From a virus (Duplodnaviria > Heunggongvirae > Uroviricota > Caudoviricetes), in IMG/VR virus record IMGVR_UViG_3300038443_000233, positions 64,001 through 91,886 of that record: DNA of 27,886 nucleotides; one strand, 5' to 3'. The number at the start of each line of letters is the position of its first letter. The first letter of the stretch is position 1. Position numbers and translations under genes: made by a program. Positions 2,573 to 26,010 of this stretch are shown here, piece after piece. The notes below the pieces were generated by a model. That model made no database searches, was not told where the DNA came from, and worked only from the letters and a program-made list of their open reading frames with translations.

Positions 2573-2582
2573 GTAGCACTAC

Positions 2583-2607
2583 GAGCCACCGTAAGGTGGC
2601 TCTTTTT
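2583..2607 (+). terminator. Rho-independent terminator
   Basis: GAGCCACC-GTAA-GGTGGCTC (8-bp stem, GNRA loop) followed by TTTTT, 10 nt after the stop codon. Confidence 0.9.
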
Positions 2608-2608
2608 C

Positions 2609-2637
2609 TTGACGGATAGAGGTATGGATGCTATAAT
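2609..2637 (+). promoter_or_regulatory. Sigma70-like promoter with extended -10, upstream of the long tail fibre gene
   Basis: TTGACG (2609-2614), 17-nt spacer, TGcTATAAT (-10 at 2632-2637). Confidence 0.8.
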
Positions 2638-2683
2638 CCTACCTATGATTATAACACAGTAAGAAGCACTTGGAAAGGGCTTT

Positions 2684-9557: not shown

Positions 9558-10027
9558 TCTTGCACGTACAGCGTTGCATCGACATCATGGAAGACAGCTT
9601 GGAAGATAGCCGTCAGACGCTTTACGTCACCGCCACCCAGACCGCCACCGATCATCGGAAGGATGACTGGAGCGTTGTTACGAATAGCGAAATCACGCAC
9701 CTTCAGCATTGAATCTACGACAGCATCGTAGCTCATGTACAGCATGCCATCCCGGCCGTAGTTCTCTTGCGTGATAGCGTTCGCTACTATGACGCTGCTT
9801 TCTGGGTTCTTAGCGAGCACTACGTCGCCTAGCACGAGGCCGAAGTCGGTGTATTCATTGCGATAGGATTCGAAAGCGTACGGGTAGAGCTTCTTGACCA
9901 AAGCAGCCACACCGGAGCCCATGACGCCTTGGGCATTGCAGCCATGGACGAGGATGACTGGTTTGTTTGCTTCTTTCTTTTCGAGTGCTGCGTTGAACAG
10001 GTCGCCGGATTCGATTTTCAGTGCCAT
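9554..10027 (-). CDS. Stand-alone macrodomain protein (T4 Tk.4/TARG1/DarG-like ADP-ribose-processing family)
   Basis: SGDLF, HGCNAQGVMGSGVA, NAITQ and LPMIGGGLGGGD macrodomain loops. Confidence 0.88.
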   Translation of the reverse strand: MALKIESGDLFNAALEKKEANKPVILVHGCNAQGVMGSGVAALVKKLYPYAFESYRNEYTDFGLVLGDVVLAKNPESSVIVANAITQENYGRDGMLYMSYDAVVDSMLKVRDFAIRNNAPVILPMIGGGLGGGDVKRLTAIFQAVFHDVDATLYVQE

Positions 10028-10078
10028 TTTATTTACTGCCTTTCGTTTAACGTTCAGGGTATTGAGTAGACAGAAAGC

Positions 10079-10107
10079 ATTGTAATACTCCCTATCTACC
10101 CTGTCAA
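10079..10107 (-). promoter_or_regulatory. Sigma70-like promoter embedded in an 18-bp inverted repeat
   Basis: TTGACA (10102-10107), 17 nt, TACAAT (10079-10084); stem spans 10064-10101. Confidence 0.8.
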
Positions 10108-10114
10108 GAGCTAA

Positions 10115-11488
10115 TTACGCAACGTAGAAGCGCTTACCCTTGGCGAAGTTCGGACCTTGGTCGTACTGCTTCTTACCAGTGATTTTCGCAGCAGCACGTG
10201 CTTCATCGCGGGTAGTATAGAACTGCACACCAGCTCCTGCTAAATGGTAACGCACGCGACCGTCGAAACCTGCGTGCTTGAGCGGCAGCGGAACGGACTG
10301 GGCAACCGGAGCCTGTACGGCAGGAGCGGCAACCTTCGGAGTCGGCTTCAGCGGCGAAGGCGTCGGCTTGTTCGTCACCGGGACAGCAGGTAGTTGCACG
10401 ACAGCCGGAGCAGCAGGCTTCGGTGCAGCCGGTGCAGTGTAGCGGTCGATTTCTTCTTGGGTGAACGGCACGCCGATTTCTTCCCAATAGAGTACTCCCG
10501 TACTCGCTACCAGCTTACGGTTCACCGACTCCGACTGGATGAACAGATCGTAGTTACCATGATCCCCCGGATGCAGGCGGATGTTGTTCACCGCGGACAG
10601 GCCCAGCATGTCACGAGCTTCCTTACCAGCGAACACCTTGCCGTTCGAACGGTCACGGATCGCGATCATCTTCGACGGCGAGACACGTGCTTCAGTCTTC
10701 GTCAGTTGATAGAACGCCGAACCCTTCAGGTACTTCATGCGCTTCGTGAGGATGAAGTCACGAATCTGAATGCCATTCTGCCACGGTTCCACCACGTACA
10801 GGCTGACGGCCTTGCTGATGTCCTTCAGCTTCGACGTATCGACGTTCTGTGCGTTGGCGTAGAACACCGTCGTGGAAGTCTTACCAGCCGAGCGGGCAGC
10901 AAAGTAGCCGTCCATTGCAGCGGCCGTCTGGGTAGTCGATGCAGCCATACCAGCTTTCGAGGTTTCCCATTCTTGCACGTTGTCCAGCGGGATGCCCAGA
11001 TTCGACACGGAGCTGCGATTACCTTTCGGGACGCGCATCACGAACGTCCAGCGGCCCGTGCGTTGCAGTTGTTCGATCTTGGTACGGAGCGATTCTGCCG
11101 TGTACTTGGTCGAGTGGGCTTCTTCGCCATCCGTCGTAGCCATCACGAGGAACGAGACGTGCTGTTCATTGGCATCCGGCAGCGATTCGAACAGTTCGAT
11201 CATGTTGCCGATACCGTCGTACAGAGGCGTACCGCCCGGAGTCGGCCAGCTTGCCACCGGCTTCAGGACGTGCGGATTCGAGATGACGATCTGGCGAGTC
11301 GTTCCGTAGCCGCTGTTGCCGATGCCGATTGCGACGACGGACACGATGGTATCCTGCATCTCGCGGCTTGCTGCGTCTTTCACAGCAGTGATGGTAGCGT
11401 TGTAGTCGCTCTTAGCTGCTTCAGCGAGACGACCCATGGAGCCCGAGTGGTCGTTGACGAAGCCGATGTAGTTTTTCGATTGTGCCAT
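10115..11488 (-). CDS. vWA (MIDAS) domain protein with an unknown middle domain, Pro/Ala linker and small basic C-terminal domain
   Basis: GFVNDHSGSM (DxSxS), GGTPLYD (T) and ATTDGEE (D) form a complete MIDAS; linker APAAPKPAAP...; strong AAGGAG RBS. Confidence 0.85.
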   Translation of the reverse strand: MAQSKNYIGFVNDHSGSMGRLAEAAKSDYNATITAVKDAASREMQDTIVSVVAIGIGNSGYGTTRQIVISNPHVLKPVASWPTPGGTPLYDGIGNMIELFESLPDANEQHVSFLVMATTDGEEAHSTKYTAESLRTKIEQLQRTGRWTFVMRVPKGNRSSVSNLGIPLDNVQEWETSKAGMAASTTQTAAAMDGYFAARSAGKTSTTVFYANAQNVDTSKLKDISKAVSLYVVEPWQNGIQIRDFILTKRMKYLKGSAFYQLTKTEARVSPSKMIAIRDRSNGKVFAGKEARDMLGLSAVNNIRLHPGDHGNYDLFIQSESVNRKLVASTGVLYWEEIGVPFTQEEIDRYTAPAAPKPAAPAVVQLPAVPVTNKPTPSPLKPTPKVAAPAVQAPVAQSVPLPLKHAGFDGRVRYHLAGAGVQFYTTRDEARAAAKITGKKQYDQGPNFAKGKRFYVA

Positions 11489-11503
11489 TGTTATTTCTCC
11501 TTG

Positions 11504-11761
11504 TTAGTTGATAGTGGTACTACGATTAAGTTCTGCGGTCTTGTACACGTTACGAATCAATGCGCAACGCTTGTCGGTGTATTGGAGGTAGAATTGATTA
11601 CCAGCGTACTCTCCAGACATCAGGGTAGCCTTGATTGTGTTTTCACCGATTACCTCTTCTACCTCGTACACTTCCAACACGGCGGAGCCATCTCTGTCTC
11701 CGTCCGCGAACACGACAACATCACCAGTATATAGAGGATTACCAAAGATGTCTAGTGTCAT
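11504..11761 (-). CDS. Hypothetical SH3/KOW-like small protein
   Basis: 85 aa, DIFGNPLYTGDVVVF motif; similar to the C-terminal half of 17042-17416. Confidence 0.65.
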   Translation of the reverse strand: MTLDIFGNPLYTGDVVVFADGDRDGSAVLEVYEVEEVIGENTIKATLMSGEYAGNQFYLQYTDKRCALIRNVYKTAELNRSTTIN

Positions 11762-11773
11762 AGTGCTTCTTTC

Positions 11774-13342
11774 TTATTGCTTCAAACGTTCCACGATGGT
11801 AGCGAACGATTTGTCACGAAGCAGGAAGCCGTCAACGAAGACAGTTTCCAGTGCACCCTCACGCTCTTCTGCGATAGACTGCTTGTCATACAGGACGAAC
11901 TTGTCGCCTTCCTTCTCGACACGCAGCAGGCCCGTTGCTGACTTCTTCATACCGTCGCCGGTAGCCGGGTCTTTCTGAATGTCCAGAGACTTGCCATACA
12001 CAACGCCCCACGTGGCCTTGACAGCCATGCCGAACGTATCACGGGTGATGTACTGGTACGTAAAGCTACCAACACCGAACACGATGTTACCGGCACTGAA
12101 GCCTTTGTCCATTAGGCGTTGCAGAATTTGTTCTGCACGTTGCAACGTAATGCTATCACCGTAGATAAGTCCGACGCGTTGGTTCAGGGTTTTGTAACCC
12201 TTGGCCGTCGTGTCGCCACCGAAGATATCCCAGAGGCATTCAACAGCGCCCTTGATTTCTGCTTCAGTCAGCAGCTTGCCAGTTTCCTTGCAAGTGTAGC
12301 CGACAACCTTACCATCAGCAGCCAATTCCAGAAGCTCGTCGTCCTTGTAGCCAGTAATGATCTTCACCGGATCACCGGAGTCCGGACGGAACACTACCTT
12401 GGCTTGGCCCAGAGCGTTCACTTTGCGAGCCAGAATTTCTTCCTTCAGCTCACGAGCGTACACAGTGATGACACGCCAGAAGTCCCACGTGTCCGACACG
12501 ATGGAGACGATACCGCTCGGATACACCTTCGTGATGAGTCGGCGGAACGTAGCCAGCTCTTCTTCACCCAGCGGTCCTTGACCGCCCATGCACATTACGG
12601 AGTGCTCTGTAGCCGGGACCGAACCGGCAACCAGCTCCTTCGTCACATCAGCGTTGTAGTACTCTTCCAGATAATCGATAGCCGGAAGCGTGTCCGTACC
12701 ACGCGAGATGAATAGGTGGGCAGCACCGCCTTTAGCAGCACCATGCCAGCCGACCATACCACGCATCGAGAAATCGTGAATCTGCCAGTCAGCGAACGCC
12801 GGATCGGAACCCGTCAGCTCGACGTACTTATTCAGGATGCGACGGTATTCGTACGTAATGGTCGCTACCGTGATTTGTTGCCACAGCTCGTCCGACAGAA
12901 CCGTTTCGAGGTAGTTCGTCAGCCAGAAGAATTGCGGCAGCGTGTTACGGATCGTCAGGAATGGAACCTTGATATCCACACGCGAACCTTCCGGCAGAGC
13001 CTTGATGATGATCGGCAGATAGCCGAGGTCATGCAGGGCAGCGATGTGATCGACTCGTACCGAGTCTGGGCCGAGGAAGTTGTCGCAGCGGCGTTTGTAC
13101 TCAGCGATCACTTCGTCCTTCGGGCGCTTGAAGAAGTGTTCGTTCCATGCTTCGATCAGGAACTCTTTCACGAAACCTTGCAGACCGACGAACACTACCT
13201 TGTTGTCGTACAGGTCGCCCATCTTAGCGTGGCTGGCCGAACGTGCCGTCAGGTTGGAATACACGTACTCCGTGCCTTCCGGGTACTGATCGATGTGGCC
13301 CAGCTTGTACGAGTCGAGGATCAGGTGCGGTTTTACTTTCAT
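11774..13342 (-). CDS. nadV: NAMPT-family phosphoribosyltransferase, probably Namat of NARP1
   Basis: Real start ATG 13342 (AAGGAG RBS), 522 aa. Motifs DSYKLGH, YSNLTAR, HDFSMRG, SVPATEHSVM, SIVSDTWD, FRPDSGDP, GLIYGDSI, VFGVGS, TRDTFGMAVKAT. Confidence 0.95.
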   Translation of the reverse strand: MKVKPHLILDSYKLGHIDQYPEGTEYVYSNLTARSASHAKMGDLYDNKVVFVGLQGFVKEFLIEAWNEHFFKRPKDEVIAEYKRRCDNFLGPDSVRVDHIAALHDLGYLPIIIKALPEGSRVDIKVPFLTIRNTLPQFFWLTNYLETVLSDELWQQITVATITYEYRRILNKYVELTGSDPAFADWQIHDFSMRGMVGWHGAAKGGAAHLFISRGTDTLPAIDYLEEYYNADVTKELVAGSVPATEHSVMCMGGQGPLGEEELATFRRLITKVYPSGIVSIVSDTWDFWRVITVYARELKEEILARKVNALGQAKVVFRPDSGDPVKIITGYKDDELLELAADGKVVGYTCKETGKLLTEAEIKGAVECLWDIFGGDTTAKGYKTLNQRVGLIYGDSITLQRAEQILQRLMDKGFSAGNIVFGVGSFTYQYITRDTFGMAVKATWGVVYGKSLDIQKDPATGDGMKKSATGLLRVEKEGDKFVLYDKQSIAEEREGALETVFVDGFLLRDKSFATIVERLKQ

Positions 13343-13356
13343 TGTTGTTCTCCTTG

Positions 13357-13587
13357 TTAGTCGATGATTACCAGCTTGCCATCGCTGTCGAGCGGGAGGT
13401 CCAAAGACCTGTCGATCCATTTGTGCAGTTTGACGCCGTTTTCCGTGATGTCCAGCAGGTGTCCAGCAGACCACGGCGTACCGGAATCATCCACGACGAC
13501 AACGGATACGGCTTTACCCTTCGGTACGAGCTTAACCTTCAGAGTCTTCTCGACTGGGGTGGCTTGTTTGAACTCTTCGATTTTCAT
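13357..13587 (-). CDS. Hypothetical protein
   Basis: Start ATG 13587 with AAGGAG RBS (MKIEEF...), 76 aa. Confidence 0.7.
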   Translation of the reverse strand: MKIEEFKQATPVEKTLKVKLVPKGKAVSVVVVDDSGTPWSAGHLLDITENGVKLHKWIDRSLDLPLDSDGKLVIID

Positions 13588-13610
13588 TATTTTCTCCTTG
13601 GTTGTGTTGG

Positions 13611-13826
13611 TTAGGCTACGATCTTGGTCCACTTAGCAGTACCAGTCTCCGGATCGCAAGCGTAGTTGGCATCGCCCACATCGTCGTACACGAAGAATTC
13701 TCCGTTGCCTTCTTCGACTTTGTAAATCTTGCCGAATGTCAGATCATGGATGTCCGGGTTGTTACGGTTCGTTTTGCTGTCATGGAAGACCACCTTATCA
13801 CCGCTTTCCAGTTTCTTCTTTGCCAT
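13611..13826 (-). CDS. Hypothetical small beta-rich protein
   Basis: 71 aa, AAGGAG RBS; DLTFGKIY...DDVGDANY is similar to the N-terminal half of 17042-17416. Confidence 0.7.
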   Translation of the reverse strand: MAKKKLESGDKVVFHDSKTNRNNPDIHDLTFGKIYKVEEGNGEFFVYDDVGDANYACDPETGTAKWTKIVA

Positions 13827-13849
13827 TTTACTCTCCTTGGTAGTGGTTC

Positions 13850-14674
13850 TTACAGTTTGATTACTTTGCCGGATGCGATTGCGTCTTTCGCTTTCTGCCC
13901 GACAGGATTAGCAGTGTACACAACATCGATCAGGTTGTCAAACACTTCAGGACCAGCACTGAAGATACCGTGCGTTACGTACAGCATGATCTTTCCATCG
14001 GTGTACGGGCGCAGCACTTTCGCCAGTTCCGTGAACGTACGCCCACCGTCGCAGATGTCATCCACGATCAGGAAGTCGTGGTCACTATCATGATTGTGCC
14101 CTTCCGTGCTGATACGCGTCTCCAGAATCTTGCCGGTGGAGAGTTCCCGGACCTTTTCAGCTTGAATCAGGCCAGCGAACCCGCCCTCTTGAGCAAACTT
14201 GCGAGCCTTCTTCGAAGCGCCAGCGTCAGGAGCAACGATGACAGTGTTACCAGCGTTCACAGCACGGGCAACGCGGCTTGCTGCGAAGTCTTGCGTGAAA
14301 ACGTCAACGTTGTCTAACAGTGCCGGGGTCACATCCGAGTGCGGGTCCACGACGCAAACACGTTCGAACTTCAGCGAATTGATGAAGTCAGCTAACACCT
14401 TGATAGACAGACTCTCCCCCGGATTGCATACACGGTCCTGACGAGCGTACGGTACGTACGGCATGAATAATTTCAGCTTGACGCCGGGAAGATCACGGCG
14501 GATGGCGTCCGCCAGCAGTGCCAGATCGAACAGGTCGGAGTTCGACTCAAATGCGAGGTTCAGTGTGACATCATCTTCGAGCCACACCGGGGTCTTCACA
14601 CGAATGCAGCTTTCGCCAGCAGGGAACGTGGTCTTGGTAAGGGCGCTATCGTAGCCAACGATACTTACGCTCAT
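13850..14674 (-). CDS. prs: PRPP-synthetase-like pyrophosphokinase, probably Adps of NARP1
   Basis: Real start ATG 14674 (GGGAG RBS), 274 aa. Motifs FPAGE, MPYVPYARQDR, DPHSD, APDAGA, KVRELSTG, IVDDICDGGRTF, YVTHGIFS. Confidence 0.93.
   Translation of the reverse strand: MSVSIVGYDSALTKTTFPAGESCIRVKTPVWLEDDVTLNLAFESNSDLFDLALLADAIRRDLPGVKLKLFMPYVPYARQDRVCNPGESLSIKVLADFINSLKFERVCVVDPHSDVTPALLDNVDVFTQDFAASRVARAVNAGNTVIVAPDAGASKKARKFAQEGGFAGLIQAEKVRELSTGKILETRISTEGHNHDSDHDFLIVDDICDGGRTFTELAKVLRPYTDGKIMLYVTHGIFSAGPEVFDNLIDVVYTANPVGQKAKDAIASGKVIKL
13913..13941 (-). promoter_or_regulatory. Possible internal sigma70 promoter in the 3' end of the prs-like gene, upstream of the NAMPT-like gene
   Basis: TTGACA (13936-13941), 17 nt, TACACT (13913-13918). 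It lies in coding sequence, so it could be chance. Confidence 0.4.
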
Positions 14675-14675
14675 C

Positions 14676-14885
14676 TTACACTCCCGCACGCAGCGAGCGA
14701 ACGAACGACAAACCGGGGATGGTAGTGTAACCGTCGAATACGTCACGCACGCCTTTCACATCCGCATATTTTCCAGCACGGATGCAGGAACGGGTTACGC
14801 CGGTCTTATTGTCCCAGCGGTAGTTAGGGTTCAGGCACCAGCCCGGAATGAATTTACCTTCACGTTGGTTACGGCTCTTGCTCAT
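14676..14885 (-). CDS. Hypothetical basic protein
   Basis: 69 aa, AAGGAG RBS. Confidence 0.7.
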   Translation of the reverse strand: MSKSRNQREGKFIPGWCLNPNYRWDNKTGVTRSCIRAGKYADVKGVRDVFDGYTTIPGLSFVRSLRAGV

Positions 14886-15030
14886 GTTCTTCTCCTTGGT
14901 TGTAGTCCGAGTATGGACAGGTCTTTGGTCCGGGGCATGTACCCCATTTTACGTCGCATTGGCAACGTTCACTACGACCTTTCTTACGTTCCAACTTCAG
15001 TTCGTAGATGTCGTCGTTGAATGCATCCAT
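14869..15030 (-). CDS. Cys-rich microprotein (not in ORF track)
   Basis: MDAFNDDIYELKLERKKGRSERCQCDVKWGTCPGPKTCPYSDYNQGEEHEQEP, 53 aa; starts 3 nt after the SLOG stop. Confidence 0.6.
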   Translation of the reverse strand: MDAFNDDIYELKLERKKGRSERCQCDVKWGTCPGPKTCPYSDYNQGEEHEQEP

Positions 15031-15033
15031 TAT

Positions 15034-15519
15034 CTACAACTTCTTTCGTACCGTCAAGCTATTTGGGAAAATAATTTCGCACTTGTCTTGCAGCCGGTCG
15101 AGTGCATCAGCGTCAATACGCAACGGGAACAAGTAAGCAGGCTTGTCCAGAGCGATCATACGGTGCAGCATATCAAGCGAGCCAGTGCTACGACCGTCCC
15201 ACACGATCAAAGCGGCATCTGCCATCTGAGCCATCTCTTCGTTGCGCCAGTGACCCGCCAGAGCGTTGTACGGCCCACGGCTGTTATGACGAACGACGGC
15301 TCCACGAGCCTTGATATTGCTCCAGTCAGCGGGCTTCTTGTGCAGCTTGAGCCCCGCCTTCTCAGCGAAGATTTCCCCGTGCTTATCCGGGCCTTCAGCT
15401 TCCCCGGAAATCACCGCGATCTTCTTGCCGTATGTCGTCCACAGGCCACTTTCGATGATGGCTTGACGCGTGACGTTGTAATCCCGGATGGACCGGGAAC
15501 CAGCTATGACGAGCTTCAT
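15034..15519 (-). CDS. SLOG-superfamily protein (DUF2493/YspA-like)
   Basis: KLVIAGSR, VISGEAEGPD, PADW, AGHWRNEEMA, WDGRSTGSLDM. Confidence 0.85.
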   Translation of the reverse strand: MKLVIAGSRSIRDYNVTRQAIIESGLWTTYGKKIAVISGEAEGPDKHGEIFAEKAGLKLHKKPADWSNIKARGAVVRHNSRGPYNALAGHWRNEEMAQMADAALIVWDGRSTGSLDMLHRMIALDKPAYLFPLRIDADALDRLQDKCEIIFPNSLTVRKKL

Positions 15520-15882
15520 TTAAAAACTCCCTCTCAATCCTAGACGTTTGTTCTTCTGCGTGGCAGAGATTTCAAGCACAAGACCGGCCGTGATGGCGTA
15601 CTTCCTGTACTCAGATGGCAGTGCATACGTGATGGCAAGCCCAGCGAGGCTCATGCCAACGAAGTAGTTCCGGATTCTGTTATCGCTTGGGCACCGGCCC
15701 ATCAACACGTTCCGTTCGTACGCCCACTCATGGTTCTTGATGTCGAGCGTTTGCTTGTAGTCGCGGTAGGTGAAAGCTCCGAGAACAGCGAGTCCAGCTA
15801 CTTGCCCGTCCGTGAATGGGTCAGCAGCCTTCACCGGAGCAGCCAGCGACAGCATTGTAACCAAAGCAACTAACAGTTTCAT
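15520..15882 (-). CDS. Exported/membrane hypothetical protein
   Basis: Start ATG 15882 (GGAGG RBS). Signal peptide MKLLVALVTMLSLAAPVKA, YERNVLMGRCPS motif, C-terminal Phe. Confidence 0.65.
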   Translation of the reverse strand: MKLLVALVTMLSLAAPVKAADPFTDGQVAGLAVLGAFTYRDYKQTLDIKNHEWAYERNVLMGRCPSDNRIRNYFVGMSLAGLAITYALPSEYRKYAITAGLVLEISATQKNKRLGLRGSF

Positions 15883-15899
15883 AGTACCTCCAGTGTAAG

Positions 15900-16199
15900 T
15901 TATGCACGCTCCATATCTCTTACCCACGCGTGCGGCATATCGTCAATCATAACATCAATGCGAATGCCTTGTCCATACATAAATCGCTCTTTTGCCTTGC
16001 GATTTGTTGCGTAGATGCCTTCGCATTCAACCTTCCAGTATTGCATAGCCATATGTACTTCCTTGGCTTCTTCTTCGTCCCGCCACGTCACGATGTAGAC
16101 CTTATGTCCTCGTGCTGTGAACGCCTTAATGAAGTCAGCCCAGCCGATAGGATCACGGGTGAAGGTGTCGTCGTAGTCCAGTCCGATGTTCATTTCCAT
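15900..16199 (-). CDS. Minimal HAD-superfamily phosphatase
   Basis: IGLDYDDT (motif I), YIVTWR (II), K (III), MIDDMP (IV). Confidence 0.75.
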   Translation of the reverse strand: MEMNIGLDYDDTFTRDPIGWADFIKAFTARGHKVYIVTWRDEEEAKEVHMAMQYWKVECEGIYATNRKAKERFMYGQGIRIDVMIDDMPHAWVRDMERA

Positions 16200-16369
16200 A
16201 CCTCCACCAGAACAACAGCAAGCACTAGCGAGAACACCAGCAGCGTTACGACACGATGAATCGTGGATGTCTCCTTGTCGTTGATCGGACAGAATGCGTA
16301 TAGCATCCCGAGCGAAACTGTAAGGTACATGGCTAAAACCGTTGCGATGTATTTGAGCGGTTCAGTCAT
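16190..16369 (-). CDS. Small two-TM membrane protein (not in ORF track)
   Basis: MTEPLKYIATVLAMYLTVSLGMLYAFCPINDKETSTIHRVVTLLVFSLVLAVVLVEVWK, 59 aa; ATGA overlap with the upstream gene. Confidence 0.65.
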   Translation of the reverse strand: MTEPLKYIATVLAMYLTVSLGMLYAFCPINDKETSTIHRVVTLLVFSLVLAVVLVEVWK

Positions 16370-16560
16370 GGCTCGATCCCTTCAATCGGGAAGCCCAGCT
16401 CACGCTTAGCCCGTTGCTCCGGCGTCTCGTTAAAGCGGAAGTACGGATGTAGGGTGAATTCGTACGGCTCCGTGCTACGCCCTTTCAGGACACGTACGCC
16501 GGTACTGTTGCTACCTTGCAGGGTCAGGTAACTTTCGAGGTCGATAGTCATACAGGTCAT
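16366..16560 (-). CDS. Hypothetical protein
   Basis: 64 aa; ATGA-coupled to the upstream gene. Confidence 0.6.
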   Translation of the reverse strand: MTCMTIDLESYLTLQGSNSTGVRVLKGRSTEPYEFTLHPYFRFNETPEQRAKRELGFPIEGIEP

Positions 16561-16736
16561 TTCAATCCCGCCTTCGTAACGCAGTCGAAGTAGGCTTCTC
16601 TCTCGGTTGTGAAACCTCCGGCCACTTCACAGTTCTCTTTGCCATGTTTCGCGTCGTACCAGTACCAACGGCCTTCATGCAAGTGGGCAAGATAACCACA
16701 CATGCGGGCCAATGCTTTGTTCGTAAAGTGCACCAT
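16557..16736 (-). CDS. Hypothetical protein
   Basis: Start ATG 16736 with GGAGG RBS (MVHFTNK...), 59 aa. Confidence 0.65.
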   Translation of the reverse strand: MVHFTNKALARMCGYLAHLHEGRWYWYDAKHGKENCEVAGGFTTEREAYFDCVTKAGLK

Positions 16737-16750
16737 GTTTAACCTCCGAT

Positions 16751-16788
16751 AAAAGAAAAGGCCAGTGTACCCGAAGATACGCTGGCCT
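16751..16788 (-). terminator. Rho-independent terminator after the glutaredoxin gene
   Basis: AGGCCAGCGTATC-TTCG-GGTACACTGGCCT followed by TTTCTTTT (cUUCGg loop). Confidence 0.8.
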
Positions 16789-16793
16789 GTCAA
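16764..16793 (-). promoter_or_regulatory. Sigma70-like promoter superimposed on the terminator hairpin
   Basis: TTGACA (16788-16793), 18 nt, TACACT (16764-16769). Confidence 0.6.
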
Positions 16794-16803
16794 GTAGTGC
16801 TTC

Positions 16804-17031
16804 TTACGAAGCGTTGTTCAGATGCGACTCCAGCCCCTTGAAACCGCCGGGGATCAGAACATCGTCCTTGTAAATCTGCGGCATCGAGCGGAAGCCTTGT
16901 GCACGAATGAAGCGTGCAGCGTCCATGTCTTCGTCAATCTTAACGACCTTGTGTTCGATACCTTTAGCTTTCAGCAGGTTGACAGCCGAATTGCAAGCAG
17001 CGCAACCTTCCATGCTATACACGGTGTACAT
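16804..17031 (-). CDS. Glutaredoxin/NrdH-like redoxin
   Basis: YSMEGCAAC (CxxC), RSMPQIY, GGF; lies downstream of the RNR genes. Confidence 0.9.
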   Translation of the reverse strand: MYTVYSMEGCAACNSAVNLLKAKGIEHKVVKIDEDMDAARFIRAQGFRSMPQIYKDDVLIPGGFKGLESHLNNAS

Positions 17032-17041
17032 ACTTCTCTCC

Positions 17042-17416
17042 TTATTTGATTACGATGGCGCGTTGTTCGAACACGCCGAGGGTTACGACAGCACCGTCCG
17101 ATGCACGGCACAGGGCCGTTGGGCCGTTGATCTGCTGGACTTCGAACATGGCGAGATGACGGCTTTGGGCACCAACGAACGCGTAAGCGATGATATCACC
17201 GGCTTTGACTTCGTGGCCTTGAATGTCACGTAGCACGGGAGCACTCTTCGCCGGGACGACTTCAACCCAGTCGCTTTTCAGCTCTCCGATGATGCTGTGG
17301 CTGTAGTTCTTGTCGCCACGGTCGTCAATGACATGAGCACCGGAACCCGTGCCGATGGCTTCGTACACTTTGCCCTTCGTGATGTCGTGACCGTCTTTGG
17401 TGAATACGATAAACAT
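17042..17416 (-). CDS. Two-domain hypothetical protein (fusion of the 13611-13826-like and 11504-11761-like domains)
   Basis: 124 aa, AAAGGAG RBS; manual alignment to both small ORFs. Confidence 0.7.
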   Translation of the reverse strand: MFIVFTKDGHDITKGKVYEAIGTGSGAHVIDDRGDKNYSHSIIGELKSDWVEVVPAKSAPVLRDIQGHEVKAGDIIAYAFVGAQSRHLAMFEVQQINGPTALCRASDGAVVTLGVFEQRAIVIK

Positions 17417-17448
17417 CTGGTTCTCCTTTGGTTGGTAAGAAAGGCTAC

Positions 17449-17477
17449 ATAGTAGCCCTCCTTACGATTGGTGTCAA
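17449..17477 (-). promoter_or_regulatory. Sigma70-like promoter with -10 at the apex of a 14-bp inverted repeat
   Basis: TTGACA (17472-17477), 17 nt, TACTAT (17449-17454); stem spans 17435-17465. Confidence 0.8.
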
Positions 17478-17480
17478 GTG

Positions 17481-19220
17481 TTATTGGCAGGCAATGCACT
17501 CAGACTTCGAAGAAACAATCGCACGGCTTGAGTAGATGTAGTACAAGCTATGGATCAATTCGTTTTCGAACGCTTCCTTGTGCAGCAGAGCGATTTCACG
17601 CTCAGTCGTACCTTTCGCGATGTACACGTTGATGCTCTGACCTTGGTCGATGTGCTTCTGTGCAGCAGCAGCCAAACGCAGGACGACACGCTGATCGTAC
17701 TCGAATGCGGTACGGAACACAAGTTTCTCGAAATCATCTAGCCAGTCCACGTGTTGTACGGAACCGTAGCCATGCACCACGTCAGCAATGCACTTCTCCA
17801 CGTTCAGACCCTTACGCTTGATGAGGGCTAGCAACGGAGGATTAACACGGTCCACTTCACCCGCAGAGGTCTTCTGCGTGAACGACATTGCCGTATCGAG
17901 GCCACGGCCTTCCGAGATACCACCCATGATAAGGGCAGTGGATTTCGTAGGAGCCACAGCAATACGGTGCGTGAAGCGAAGACCGTAGCCAACACACCAC
18001 TCCGGTTCACCCAGTTCAACAGCCAGCCACCTCGATGCTTCCAACGATTTGTCGTCCAGATGCTTGAAGAACTCCGCGTTGAAGATGTACGCATCCACGG
18101 AGTCAGCAGGCATCATGTGCTCTTGCATGTACGTGTGCAGGCCACCACAACCCAAACCGATAGCACGTCCCGCTTTGGTAGCGTTGACAGCCTTCTCCAG
18201 CCCCGGAATCCCTTCAGCTTGCTCAATGAATTCCGAAATAACGCAATCGAGGAACACGGTAGCGACGAACACAGCATCCGTATCCTTCCACTCGTCGTAC
18301 TTCGAAGCATTCATCCACGCCAGAACACACGTGTACGTGTACTTCGTTGCATCGCTGTGCAGGAAGATTTCAGTACAGAGCTGCGAAGCCTTGACCATCA
18401 GGCCGAGGTCTTTGTACATCTGCGGACGGTTCCTGTTCACCTTATCGATGAAGAAGAAGTAGCCCTTGCCCGTTACCATCTTGACACGCATCATGCGTTT
18501 GAATCGACGGTGCGCTTCCTTGTCGCCCTTGTTCAGTTTGGCAATGAATTCGTCCGTGATGATCCAACCCATGTTGAAGTCGTCATCGTGCTTCTCAAGG
18601 TACGCGATCACTTCCCAGAAGTCGCCATGCATCACGTTCAGGTAAGCAGCCCACGCACCACGACGAGCTGTTCCTTGGGTCACGTTACGCATGATTTCGA
18701 TGTGCTCTTTAATGACAGGCATCACACCGTTCGCTTTGCCACCACGGCTGATCTTCGAGCCACGTGCACGGATACCAGACAGGTCCGTGGCAGTACCGAA
18801 ACCTTCTTGGCTCAGGATCGCGATTTCCAGCTCGTTACTGTAGAAGCCGTAGATCGAGTCGTGAGCTTCCGTGCCAGCACAAGACACTGTGCAGCCACGC
18901 TTCGTTCCCATGTTAGCCAGAACAGGCGTAGAGCAAGCCAGCCAGCCTTTCCACAGGATTTCGAAGAACTTGTCAGTCCAGTACGTGCTGAACGTCTCTG
19001 TCGGCATCAGGACGCGATCAACGTCTGACGGGGCCAGTTTCTTCGGTGCGTGCTTGGCAGCGGTAGCAGCAATACGGAGGTACTGTTGACGCGGGCTTTC
19101 CGCTTCGTACAGGTACTTATCCATGAACATCTGGTAGCCAGCGGTAGGCATCCACACCGGGACCGTACCGTCTAGCTGGCCCTGCTTACGCGCCTCACTG
19201 TAGCGCTCATACTTCGACAT
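17481..19220 (-). CDS. nrdA: Class I ribonucleotide reductase alpha subunit (no ATP-cone)
   Basis: Start ATG 19220, 579 aa. Motifs STPVLANMG, VSC, SQLCTEI, TCVL, APTKST, YYIYS and C-terminal CIAC. Confidence 0.95.
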   Translation of the reverse strand: MSKYERYSEARKQGQLDGTVPVWMPTAGYQMFMDKYLYEAESPRQQYLRIAATAAKHAPKKLAPSDVDRVLMPTETFSTYWTDKFFEILWKGWLACSTPVLANMGTKRGCTVSCAGTEAHDSIYGFYSNELEIAILSQEGFGTATDLSGIRARGSKISRGGKANGVMPVIKEHIEIMRNVTQGTARRGAWAAYLNVMHGDFWEVIAYLEKHDDDFNMGWIITDEFIAKLNKGDKEAHRRFKRMMRVKMVTGKGYFFFIDKVNRNRPQMYKDLGLMVKASQLCTEIFLHSDATKYTYTCVLAWMNASKYDEWKDTDAVFVATVFLDCVISEFIEQAEGIPGLEKAVNATKAGRAIGLGCGGLHTYMQEHMMPADSVDAYIFNAEFFKHLDDKSLEASRWLAVELGEPEWCVGYGLRFTHRIAVAPTKSTALIMGGISEGRGLDTAMSFTQKTSAGEVDRVNPPLLALIKRKGLNVEKCIADVVHGYGSVQHVDWLDDFEKLVFRTAFEYDQRVVLRLAAAAQKHIDQGQSINVYIAKGTTEREIALLHKEAFENELIHSLYYIYSSRAIVSSKSECIACQ

Positions 19221-20247
19221 CAGCAACTCCTTCGTCAACAGGCCAAATGAATTCTTCTTCGTTCCACGTGGTAGTGTACTCACGCCCCTTACCGACGAAG
19301 AAATCGTTCAGTTGGAACTTCTGCACGCCGCCGTAGAACCAGTCAGCGATTGGGTTGTGTTTCGTTTCACGCTTGCTGAAAATAGGCGGGAAGCCCAGAT
19401 CAGTTACGCAGATGTTGATACGGCTCTTTACGAACGTCTTGGCGTCCTCTACGGTCCAGCCAGTACCGACATCACCTTTTTCGCCCAGCATTTCAGCAAT
19501 GCGAGCTTCGTGTTCGTACAGCTTCAGTGCAGCCTTCTTGATGGCACGCTGGAGCTTCTTGTAAAGCTTCTTGTACTCTTCCGGCGACAGGATGTCTTCC
19601 CATTCCTGCATCGCAGTACGGAACAGTGTGGCCCCGCCAATCTGGTGCAGACCTTCATCCACGACGGATTGGTCGATGCCACGGACAACGTTGCCGATGA
19701 AATTGTTACCGTTCGCTTGGAAGCTCTTGAAGAACGCGAACGAGCTGAACAGAATTGCTCCTTCGAGGATCGAGAACACAGCGATAGATAGCAGATCGTT
19801 CTTACTGTCCACCATCTTGTCAAGGAACGCTACGCGAGCATTCAGGACAGGATCGTCCACGTACGAAGTATAGAACTCGTCGGTGTCGAGGCCCAGCACT
19901 TCGTTCAGTTTGTTGTAAAACGGTGCGTGGACGTGGAGTTCCATCATACCGTTGACAGATGCCAGTCGTTCCACTTCGGGCCGAGGGAAAGCCTTGATGA
20001 CGCGATTGAGCCAGTATTCCTTACCAGCGAACATCTCGTAACGGGTGAACAGCTTCAGGCCCGTCGTGATACCGTGATGGGCGTTGTCACCGACGTTCAC
20101 CATCATGTCTTGTTTGTCTTTCTCCACTGCAATCTCGTTTGCAGTCCATCGGCAATCTTCGAACTGGGTATCAGCCAGCTTGACGAATTGAGGATAGACC
20201 GTAACGTAACTTTCAGTGGGAGTCATAATTCTTGGTTTTTGCATCAT
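19207..20247 (-). CDS. nrdB: Class I ribonucleotide reductase beta subunit
   Basis: Start ATG 20247, 346 aa. Motifs WTANE, YEMFAGKEYW, ELHVHAPFY, LEGAILFSSF, DEGLH, FFVGKGREY. Confidence 0.95.
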   Translation of the reverse strand: MMQKPRIMTPTESYVTVYPQFVKLADTQFEDCRWTANEIAVEKDKQDMMVNVGDNAHHGITTGLKLFTRYEMFAGKEYWLNRVIKAFPRPEVERLASVNGMMELHVHAPFYNKLNEVLGLDTDEFYTSYVDDPVLNARVAFLDKMVDSKNDLLSIAVFSILEGAILFSSFAFFKSFQANGNNFIGNVVRGIDQSVVDEGLHQIGGATLFRTAMQEWEDILSPEEYKKLYKKLQRAIKKAALKLYEHEARIAEMLGEKGDVGTGWTVEDAKTFVKSRINICVTDLGFPPIFSKRETKHNPIADWFYGGVQKFQLNDFFVGKGREYTTTWNEEEFIWPVDEGVADVEV

Positions 20248-20262
20248 ACTCCCTTCTATGTG

Positions 20263-20284
20263 AAAAACGGGGCCGAAGCCCCGT
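20263..20284 (-). terminator. Terminator-like cUUCGg hairpin in the nrdB leader
   Basis: ACGGGGC-TTCG-GCCCCGT followed by TTTTC. Confidence 0.7.
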
Positions 20285-20296
20285 GGTTGGACGCCT

Positions 20297-20325
20297 ATTA
20301 TAGCATAGGTAGCCTTACTTATCAA
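20297..20325 (-). promoter_or_regulatory. Sigma70-like promoter with extended -10 for nrdBA
   Basis: TTGATA (20320-20325), 17 nt, TGcTATAAT (-10 at 20297-20302). Confidence 0.75.
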
Positions 20326-20869
20326 CCTTGACGGAACGCTTCCTGCGTTCCTTCTTGACCGGCTCAGGCGGCGGAGCATGGTATTCGAAGATGGTTTTCA
20401 GGCTGCCATCCTCACGTCGCATGTTCGGCCTCACTTGATCGATGAGGTTTTGTAGCACTTCGATCTGTTCCATGATAGCAGCTTCGTCCGGGTTGCTCAA
20501 CTCTGCCGGGAACGCTTCTGCAACACCGCTGTATTCGCGGCTGGTAGACAACGAACGTGACATTTCATTGGCAAGGCTGATGTCCTTGTAACCGGCAGCG
20601 ATGATACGGTCCTCTGCTGTTGCGAACGAACTGTTAAGGAAGTTGGAATTGATGTCCACTTCGCCAGCAATCATGTACGCGATAACAACTTCACCAGCGA
20701 GGTTGCGATGCTGTCGTGCCAGATATTCAATCGGGTAATCCAGATCGAAGCCCAGCACTTTCAGGTAAGGAGCGATCAGAGCGTCATTCGTCGGATCGAT
20801 GAAATCGATCATGCGCAAATGTGACAGCTCCGGGATGCGCTTCAGGTCGGTGACGCTAATCGTTTTCAT
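20315..20869 (-). CDS. Conserved-looking hypothetical phage protein
   Basis: 184 aa, AAGGAG RBS, basic C-terminal tail. Confidence 0.7.
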   Translation of the reverse strand: MKTISVTDLKRIPELSHLRMIDFIDPTNDALIAPYLKVLGFDLDYPIEYLARQHRNLAGEVVIAYMIAGEVDINSNFLNSSFATAEDRIIAAGYKDISLANEMSRSLSTSREYSGVAEAFPAELSNPDEAAIMEQIEVLQNLIDQVRPNMRREDGSLKTIFEYHAPPPEPVKKERRKRSVKVDK

Positions 20870-25981: not shown

Positions 25982-26010
25982 ATCTTACACTACGTAGTGT
26001 TACTTGTCAA
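25982..26010 (-). promoter_or_regulatory. Sigma70-like promoter for the tRNA, with a 14-bp perfect palindrome in the spacer
   Basis: TTGACA (26005-26010), 17 nt, TAAGAT (25982-25987); ACACTACGTAGTGT at 25987-26000. Confidence 0.75.

Follow-up and report, generated by a model that had tools for sequence, protein, structure and literature searches.

A predicted sigma70-type promoter overlaid by a conserved RNA hairpin in the nrdA-orf124 spacer of an uncultured phage lineage

The DNA analyzed here, referred to below as the window, makes up the final 27.9 kb of one phage-like contig from an uncultured phage, 91,886 bp long and with a GC content of 51%. On the minus strand, nrdB and nrdA are followed by an ORF of 124 codons (orf124) and by a glutaredoxin gene (grx), and a compact element (17477-17435) is packed between the nrdA stop codon and the Shine-Dalgarno (SD) sequence of orf124. 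The genes and the parts of the element, all on the minus strand, are as follows.

Start probably at 20247, minus strand: nrdB (Pfam Ribonuc_red_sm)
17481-19283, minus strand: nrdA ORF (Pfam Ribonuc_red_lgC, E 1.6e-68)
17483-17481, minus strand: nrdA stop codon, TAA
17477-17472, minus strand: predicted -35 hexamer TTGACA, beginning 3 nt past the nrdA stop
17471-17455, minus strand: promoter spacer, 17 nt
17465-17452, minus strand: 5' arm of the hairpin, GTAAGGAGGGCTAC, purine-rich, within the promoter spacer
17454-17449, minus strand: predicted -10 hexamer TACTAT at the hairpin apex (TAC closes the 5' arm, TAT is the loop)
17451-17449, minus strand: hairpin loop TAT, 3 nt
17448-17435, minus strand: 3' arm of the hairpin, GTAGCCTTTCTTAC, promoter positions -6 to +8
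17429-17423, minus strand: SD sequence AAAGGAG, serving the 124-aa gene
17416-17414, minus strand: ATG of the 124-aa gene
17042-17416, minus strand: the 124-aa gene (orf124), function unassigned, downstream gene of the promoter
16804-17031, minus strand: glutaredoxin (grx), 75 aa, assigned by Pfam, next gene after orf124

The sequence and coordinates of the element agree with a preliminary description of this DNA, in which TTGACA, 17 nt and TACTAT were laid over a hairpin; these can be read directly, as can the complete pairing of the stem, with all 14 positions engaged in 12 Watson-Crick pairs and two G.U pairs (pairs 6 and 8). The ribosome-binding site AAAGGAG, likewise, lies just beyond the 3' arm, where that description had placed it. 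Its account of the surroundings needs correction in two respects. The glutaredoxin gene is not the next gene, orf124 being interposed, and the AAGGAGG in the 5' arm, which was said to have no adjacent ATG, is followed after 6 nt by ATG-TAG. This start-stop mini-ORF (17443-17463, minus strand) is present in all six relatives but, because the conserved -10, ending in AT, precedes a conserved GTAG, it may be a by-product. Small ORFs that begin with the last letters of the -10 followed by G (the ATG-TAG here and 5-12 codons at a sibling element at 10107) were considered in their own right, but are not conserved as ORFs and are read as by-products. The protein product of orf124 (124 aa) had no match in Pfam or PHROG.

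The full 14-bp stem is directly followed by CAACCAAAGG, without a U-run, as had been noted from the letters. Within it there is an inner stem of 6 bp, GGCTAC/GTAGCC, followed by TTTCTTAC (in RNA, GGCUAC/GUAGCC and then UUUCUUAC, a U-rich tract whose pairing partner is the purine tract AAGGAG). The 5' arm GTAAGGAGGGCTAC is located upstream of any start site that the promoter could use, and transcription is predicted to start (about 17446-17441) within the 3' arm GTAGCCTTTCTTAC, which also includes the U-rich TTTCTTAC. The sequence upstream of TTGACA is CCAATAACAC, which is mildly AT-rich; other promoters of this genome have AAAAC or AAAAG before TTGACA.

The predicted promoter matches the sigma70 consensus at 10 of the 12 positions and is among the ten best sigma70-like sites in its part of the window, all ten of which lie on the gene strand. 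The pattern TTGACA-N16-18-TAnnnT occurs 17-23 times per genome, compared with 3-4 occurrences for the reversed control (three related genomes), an approximately 6-fold enrichment. In the six homologous elements, the -35 TTGACA is identical and the -10 is TACTAT, TACGAT or TAAGAT, always at a spacing of 17 nt, so that all six genomes retain the -35, a TAnnAT -10 and their 17-nt separation amid varying flanks. The start is predicted near 17442, 7 nt from the -10, with the nearest purines at 17446 and 17445, and the leader from this start is CA-rich and unstructured (-3.4 kcal/mol, z +0.47). Like the role of the RNA hairpin, the activity of the promoter and its start site are inferred from the sequence. 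Two further candidates were rejected. Pairing of the CCUUU of the 3' arm with the genuine SD in the self-started leader, as an anti-SD, is contradicted by the weak fold of that leader (-3.4 kcal/mol, z +0.47) and is not kept in the relatives. The N4-type hairpin promoters, used by a virion RNA polymerase, have short stems of 5-7 bp and lack -35 and -10 boxes; here, the boxes are consensus sigma70 and the stems are 14-17 bp long.

The hairpin is strongly asymmetric between strands and between molecules. As sense RNA, the 41-nt stretch folds with -20.0 kcal/mol (z -6.19), and none of 200 shuffled sequences folds as well; the antisense RNA reaches -13.1 kcal/mol, and the same hairpin as DNA only -7.9 (sense) and -6.7 (antisense) kcal/mol. 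Thus, the earlier view of a near-consensus sigma70-type promoter overlaid by a strand-asymmetric hairpin is borne out. For the sibling at 10107, the corresponding values are -22.4 kcal/mol for RNA (z -6.3) and -4.6 (sense) and -2.6 (antisense) kcal/mol for DNA, with a z of only -0.7 for the DNA antisense fold. Ungapped stems of at least 14 bp around a given hexamer are found at 0.03% of random genome positions. Among stems of at least 12 bp, identified under a search rule that allowed both mismatches alike, there are 26 G.T and 3 A.C, compared with a composition-aware expectation of 54-64% G.T (P about 5e-4, a value that does not represent nine independent tests because the nine elements fall into only about three families); for short stems, the bias is marginal. 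Given that the DNA folds are weak, that the RNA reaches -20 kcal/mol and beyond only in the sense orientation and that G.T pairs are in excess in the long stems, these long stems are best read as sense-strand RNA structures.

The element is not unique in its genome. About nine sites share the layout, as judged by eye on the folds, with the 5' arm in the spacer, the -10 in or beside the loop and the 3' arm directly after it; these copies have the boxes and the CA-rich leader in common, and their stems differ. One copy elsewhere in the genome, outside the window, has ATCGTAAGGAG...CTTCTTAC in common with the nrdA-orf124 element. Among the 23 strong promoter-like sites of this genome, four enclose the -10 in the loop of an ungapped stem of at least 9 bp (P about 5e-5 relative to random positions). 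In a set of four related genomes, a stem of at least 8 bp that places the -10 in its loop is found at 18 of the 78 TTGACA-N16-18-TAnnnT sites, compared with a mean of 4.9 and a maximum of 9 when the downstream halves were exchanged among promoters (300 trials). The two siblings in the window that are most relevant to the argument are these.

10058-10107, minus strand: TTGACA-N17-TACAAT with a 17-bp stem (5 G.U), -10 at the apex, upstream of a macro-domain gene
16751-16793, minus strand: TTGACA-N18-TACACT, hairpin GGCCAGCGTATC/GGTACACTGGCC followed by TTTTCTTTT, a canonical terminator shape nested in a promoter

The former had already been recognized as the same design (10064-10107) with an unrelated stem sequence, and both it and the nrdA-orf124 element turn out to be conserved in relatives. 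In four genomes, 91% of the cells of the 10107 stem are paired, and four pairs show two-sided compensatory changes; the covariation score is 0.52, compared with 0.36 in shuffles, and was reached by 3 of 500 of these. The ortholog of the 16793 element in one relative (L003:5498-5560) also shows two-sided compensatory changes, and another relative has, at the same position (L001:5805-5860), a terminator without a promoter, with a different stem in a similar purine/pyrimidine, G.U-rich style.

Several other promoter arrangements in these genomes were observed along the way. On the plus strand (window 2573-2683), a canonical terminator, GAGCCACC...GGTGGCTC followed by TTTTT, is succeeded at once by the promoter TTGACG-N17-TATAAT (2609); its -10 lies in the loop of a 9-bp interrupted repeat, and two orthologs (L009 and L067) have a repeat of different sequence. 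The nrdB leader (window 20247-20325, minus strand) has TTGATA at 20325-20320 and a TG-extended TATAAT at 20302-20297, with a terminator-shaped hairpin, GGGGCTTCGGCCCC (20282-20269) followed by GTTTTT, downstream of the promoter and, after the hairpin, an SD and the ATG (20247). L001-L003 have the same succession of promoter, terminator and gene, with compensatory changes in the stem, the terminator thus being conserved in four genomes, so that the hairpin may be an attenuator or a 5' stabilizer; the layout also implies that NrdB has about 346 aa, as opposed to the 390-aa ORF that starts at 20379. A second promoter class, with TTGACAA, about 7 nt, GTAnGTAGTG, TAnnAT and AGCRYTAC, has a conserved spacer and start region, is found mainly before tRNA genes and plus-strand genes, and recurs in all relatives. 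Examples are the following.

25982-26010 of the window, minus strand: second-class promoter before tRNA-Arg
38096, 38665, 48629 and 55786 of the whole contig, plus strand: further second-class promoters

This class may represent a different temporal class or promoters that depend on a phage factor.

Five related uncultured genomes of 80-91 kb were identified in IMG/VR, and all five carry the promoter and the hairpin directly upstream of the orf124 homolog. The -10 is at the hairpin apex in all six genomes, and the sense RNA folds with -11 to -20 kcal/mol, compared with -5 to -13 kcal/mol for the antisense. In the four closest genomes, all 60 cells of a 16-pair structure form standard pairs, and the seven variable pairs are all accounted for by one-sided changes among G-C, G.U and A-U, with none broken; in a slid control, with the partner shifted by 1-3 columns, about 42-54% of the cells pair. 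The 5' arm varies among the relatives only by transitions that preserve pairing, and the 3' arm is the most conserved part of the element across the six genomes. In two relatives (L001 and L003), the apex is 4 nt longer, which adds two pairs, and the interval from the -35 to the stem is 4 nt shorter, so that the 17-nt spacer and the stem are both preserved. In two others (L069 and L070), the stem is only 9-10 bp long, with the -10 still at the apex, which brings the range among the relatives to 9-16 bp. Covariation in the formal sense is limited to wobble changes in the nrdA-orf124 stem and rests on the 10107 sibling; for the nrdA-orf124 family, the shuffle control on counts of paired columns is uninformative, all changes being one-sided.

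The window and one relative (L002) share the gene order nrdA, cassette, orf124, grx, and the other four (L001, L003, L069 and L070) have grx, cassette, orf124. One of these has, in the same variable stretch, an insertion found in that relative only, a 95-aa ORF between nrdA and grx (L001:4823-5110) that, by eye, resembles a T5orf172 or GIY-YIG-type domain. None of the isolates in the phage collection is close to this lineage: the best match of NrdA among isolates is 55% (50,697 phage records), and near as well as distant DNA searches of the phage collection yielded no relative at the nrdA-orf124 locus. A scan of viral contigs with the 124-aa protein alone and a scan of metagenome contigs with NrdA produced no match, two DNA-pattern scans added only chance matches inside a polymerase gene (L006/L007), and a search of Rfam with window positions 9900-20500 at E up to 1 found no family.

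The closest counterpart among described systems are the PeSLs (promoter-early stem-loops) of the T4-like phages RB49/phi1, T4/PST and KVP40/nt-1 (Arbiol et al. 2010, PMC2839356; Comeau et al. 2014, PMC4122927). These combine a strong sigma70-like promoter with a stem-loop, in which G-T pairs were marked, between a stop codon and an SD, the stem-loop most often being located between the boxes or over the -10; the cassettes flank small genes of unknown function and mediate their shuffling (PMC2839356; PMC4122927). In a reporter, one PeSL stem-loop lowered lacZ expression to a similar degree as rrnB T1 did (PMC2839356). An AT-rich tract ahead of the -35, and numerous copies per genome that are alike enough to recombine and that cluster among variable small genes, are further PeSL features. 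The element described here shares with the PeSLs the near-consensus sigma70 promoter, the stem-loop with G-T pairs between stop codon and SD, its position over the -10, which is a described sub-class, its repetition through the genome and the small downstream gene of unknown function. Furthermore, the cassette changes place relative to its neighbor grx among the relatives; the two gene orders can be interpreted as a cyclic permutation of three parts, which would require a single rearrangement and shift the cassette relative to grx, an apparent echo of PeSL shuffling. There are also differences. The host genome, of about 92 kb, belongs to an uncultured lineage whose best NrdA match among isolates is 55%, and the element is filed as PeSL-like in its working and not within the T4 family; what the copies have in common is limited to the boxes and the leader and does not extend to a repeat of about 100 bp; the stems are long (14-17 bp) and purine/pyrimidine-asymmetric instead of polyG/polyC; the -10 sits at the apex in a more uniform geometry; and the promoter and terminator are predicted from the sequence. 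With these differences, this is a promoter/stem-loop cassette of a kind that has already been described, here outside the described T4-like phages.

Taking together the observed sequence, fold and strand asymmetry, the conservation of the promoter and the pairing, and the recurrence of the design, the element is probably, although with considerable reservations, a composite cassette of the PeSL type, in which a sigma70-type promoter is combined with a stem-loop whose target is read-through RNA, where it would serve as an attenuator, a terminator or a 3' barrier. A strong host sigma70-type promoter (TTGACA, 17 nt, TACTAT) would drive orf124. The self-started transcripts would begin at about 17446-17441, inside the 3' arm, and would therefore lack the 5' arm, leaving an unstructured CA-rich leader with a good SD; the hairpin would accordingly be confined to RNA that arrives from upstream. 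The term 'hairpin promoter', under which the element was originally reported, is thus apt for the overlap of promoter and hairpin but not for the promoter's own transcripts, in which the hairpin is not expected to form. In sense read-through RNA from nrdB-nrdA, and only there, the 14-bp stem-loop would form 15 nt after the nrdA stop, most likely attenuating or terminating transcription through the inner GC stem followed by UUUCUUAC, with the purine tract paired to the U-rich tract. The nrdA message may, in addition, be left with a 3' hairpin that resists nucleases, and the promoter would restart transcription for orf124.

The terminator component of this reading deserves separate scrutiny. The element resembles intrinsic (Rho-independent) terminators, among them those in which an upstream A/purine tract pairs with the U-tract: a stable sense RNA hairpin immediately follows a gene, UUUCUUAC comes directly after the inner GC-rich stem, the AAGGAG purine tract pairs with this U-rich tract, and the 16793 sibling has the full canonical shape. 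In contrast to such terminators, the 14-bp stem lacks a following U-run, the U-rich stretch is interrupted as well as short, and the hairpin overlaps an active-looking promoter. The conclusion of the preliminary description that the hairpin is not a terminator, drawn from the missing U-tract, does not follow, considering that a PeSL stem-loop terminated in a reporter (PMC2839356), that the inner stem is followed by TTTCTTAC and that the 16793 sibling is a textbook hairpin with a T-tract inside a promoter. Nevertheless, several findings weigh against a terminator role: the full stem is followed by CAACCAAA and not by a U-run; the inner-stem reading (6 bp and TTTCTTAC) satisfies only a loose consensus, for which there are 16 sites compared with 18.8 expected in shuffles; and L069 and L070 keep only 9-10 bp. 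In addition, two other promoters with repeats spanning the -10 adjoin a canonical terminator, located just upstream at 2609 and just downstream in the nrdB leader, and because of these adjoining terminators, such a role for the repeat would be redundant at both sites. Selection on the message leader itself may explain why the 3' arm is conserved. This counter-evidence keeps alive a role at the level of DNA, in RNA processing or in marking read-through.

The role at the DNA level would be a gating of the promoter, whereby the repeat centered on the -10 extrudes under negative supercoiling as a non-template hairpin or a cruciform and alters the geometry of the promoter, so that initiation depends on supercoiling or upstream transcription. 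Horwitz and Loeb reportedly engineered, in 1988, an E. coli promoter that was regulated by cruciform extrusion. Such gating would agree with the position of the -10 in or next to the loop in most elements, with the survival of this geometry through an indel in the relatives and with the presence of repeats over the -10 also at promoters that adjoin a canonical terminator (2609 and the nrdB leader). We consider it unlikely, however, since the DNA hairpins are weak (-7.9/-6.7 kcal/mol here and -4.6/-2.6 kcal/mol in the sibling, with an antisense z of -0.7), since each G.T on one strand is an A.C mismatch on the other, an asymmetry that disfavors a cruciform, and since only about a quarter of the promoters carry repeats, which are therefore not needed for promoter function. 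Read-through marking is a related proposition, in which the hairpins are not terminators but a switch that distinguishes read-through from self-started RNA, or else the DNA repeat couples the firing of the promoter to incoming transcription; this pair of readings, too, appears improbable. Under the switch, the hairpin, together with the AAGGAGG and AUG-UAG buried in it, would be found in polycistronic RNA only, and this RNA would meet a different fate, which could involve pausing, processing or the capture or release of ribosomes. If true, the switch or the DNA coupling would explain the repeats at promoters that already adjoin a canonical terminator. Slightly less credit still is due to RNA processing, that is, cleavage of the stem-loop in the nrdB-nrdA-orf124 RNA by RNase III or another double-strand-specific nuclease that would separate the messages in the manner of T7 early mRNA. 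This explanation calls for a conserved helix in intergenic RNA that is specific to the sense strand and has no U-run, and in these features, as in its location in a polycistronic region of a phage, the element resembles the RNase III hairpins of T7 and T3 early mRNA (R1.1). Classic RNase III sites comprise roughly two helical turns, which is more than the 14-17 bp of the stems here or the 8-10 bp to which several homologous or paralogous elements are limited. The 14-bp stem is uninterrupted, without an internal loop of the T7 R1.1 kind, and, unlike R1.1, overlaps a promoter; moreover, no Rfam family was matched.

It is very doubtful that the complementarity has no function of its own and arose merely as a side effect, either of conserved motifs in the promoter and leader or of past recombination of the cassette: although the 3' arm and the leader are conserved as sequence in the six genomes and the spacers of this phage group often contain GTAG-type motifs, the length of the stem greatly exceeds chance expectation, the 5' arm varies and yet is always complementary, the 10107 sibling shows two-sided compensation, and the compensated 4-nt indel argues for selection on both spacer length and stem. 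An operator, with the repeat over the -10 serving as the binding site of a dimeric regulator of the phage or the host that shuts the promoter off, appears the least plausible. Many arms do have GTAG or GTAAG at the 5' side and CTAC or CTTAC at the 3' side, and overlap with the -10 is the usual place for a repressor, but stem sequences, stem lengths (8-17 bp) and loop sizes (3-17 nt) differ among the promoters; evolution keeps the pairing, including G.U, and not the sequence of half-sites, with changes mostly in one arm; and the bias of G.T over A.C is unexpected for a duplex operator.

The element does not open a long-standing question. At 64 nt, it is small enough to be tested directly as an insulating expression part, and its natural variation shows clearly how a single stretch of 31 nt is constrained twice, by the length of the promoter spacer and by pairing in the RNA. 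In annotation, such hairpins should be called neither "just terminators" nor "just promoters". With regard to the PeSL-like cassette, the finding suggests that compact promoter-in-hairpin cassettes, known from T4-like phages, also organize the nucleotide-metabolism region of an uncultured phage lineage with genomes of about 90 kb.
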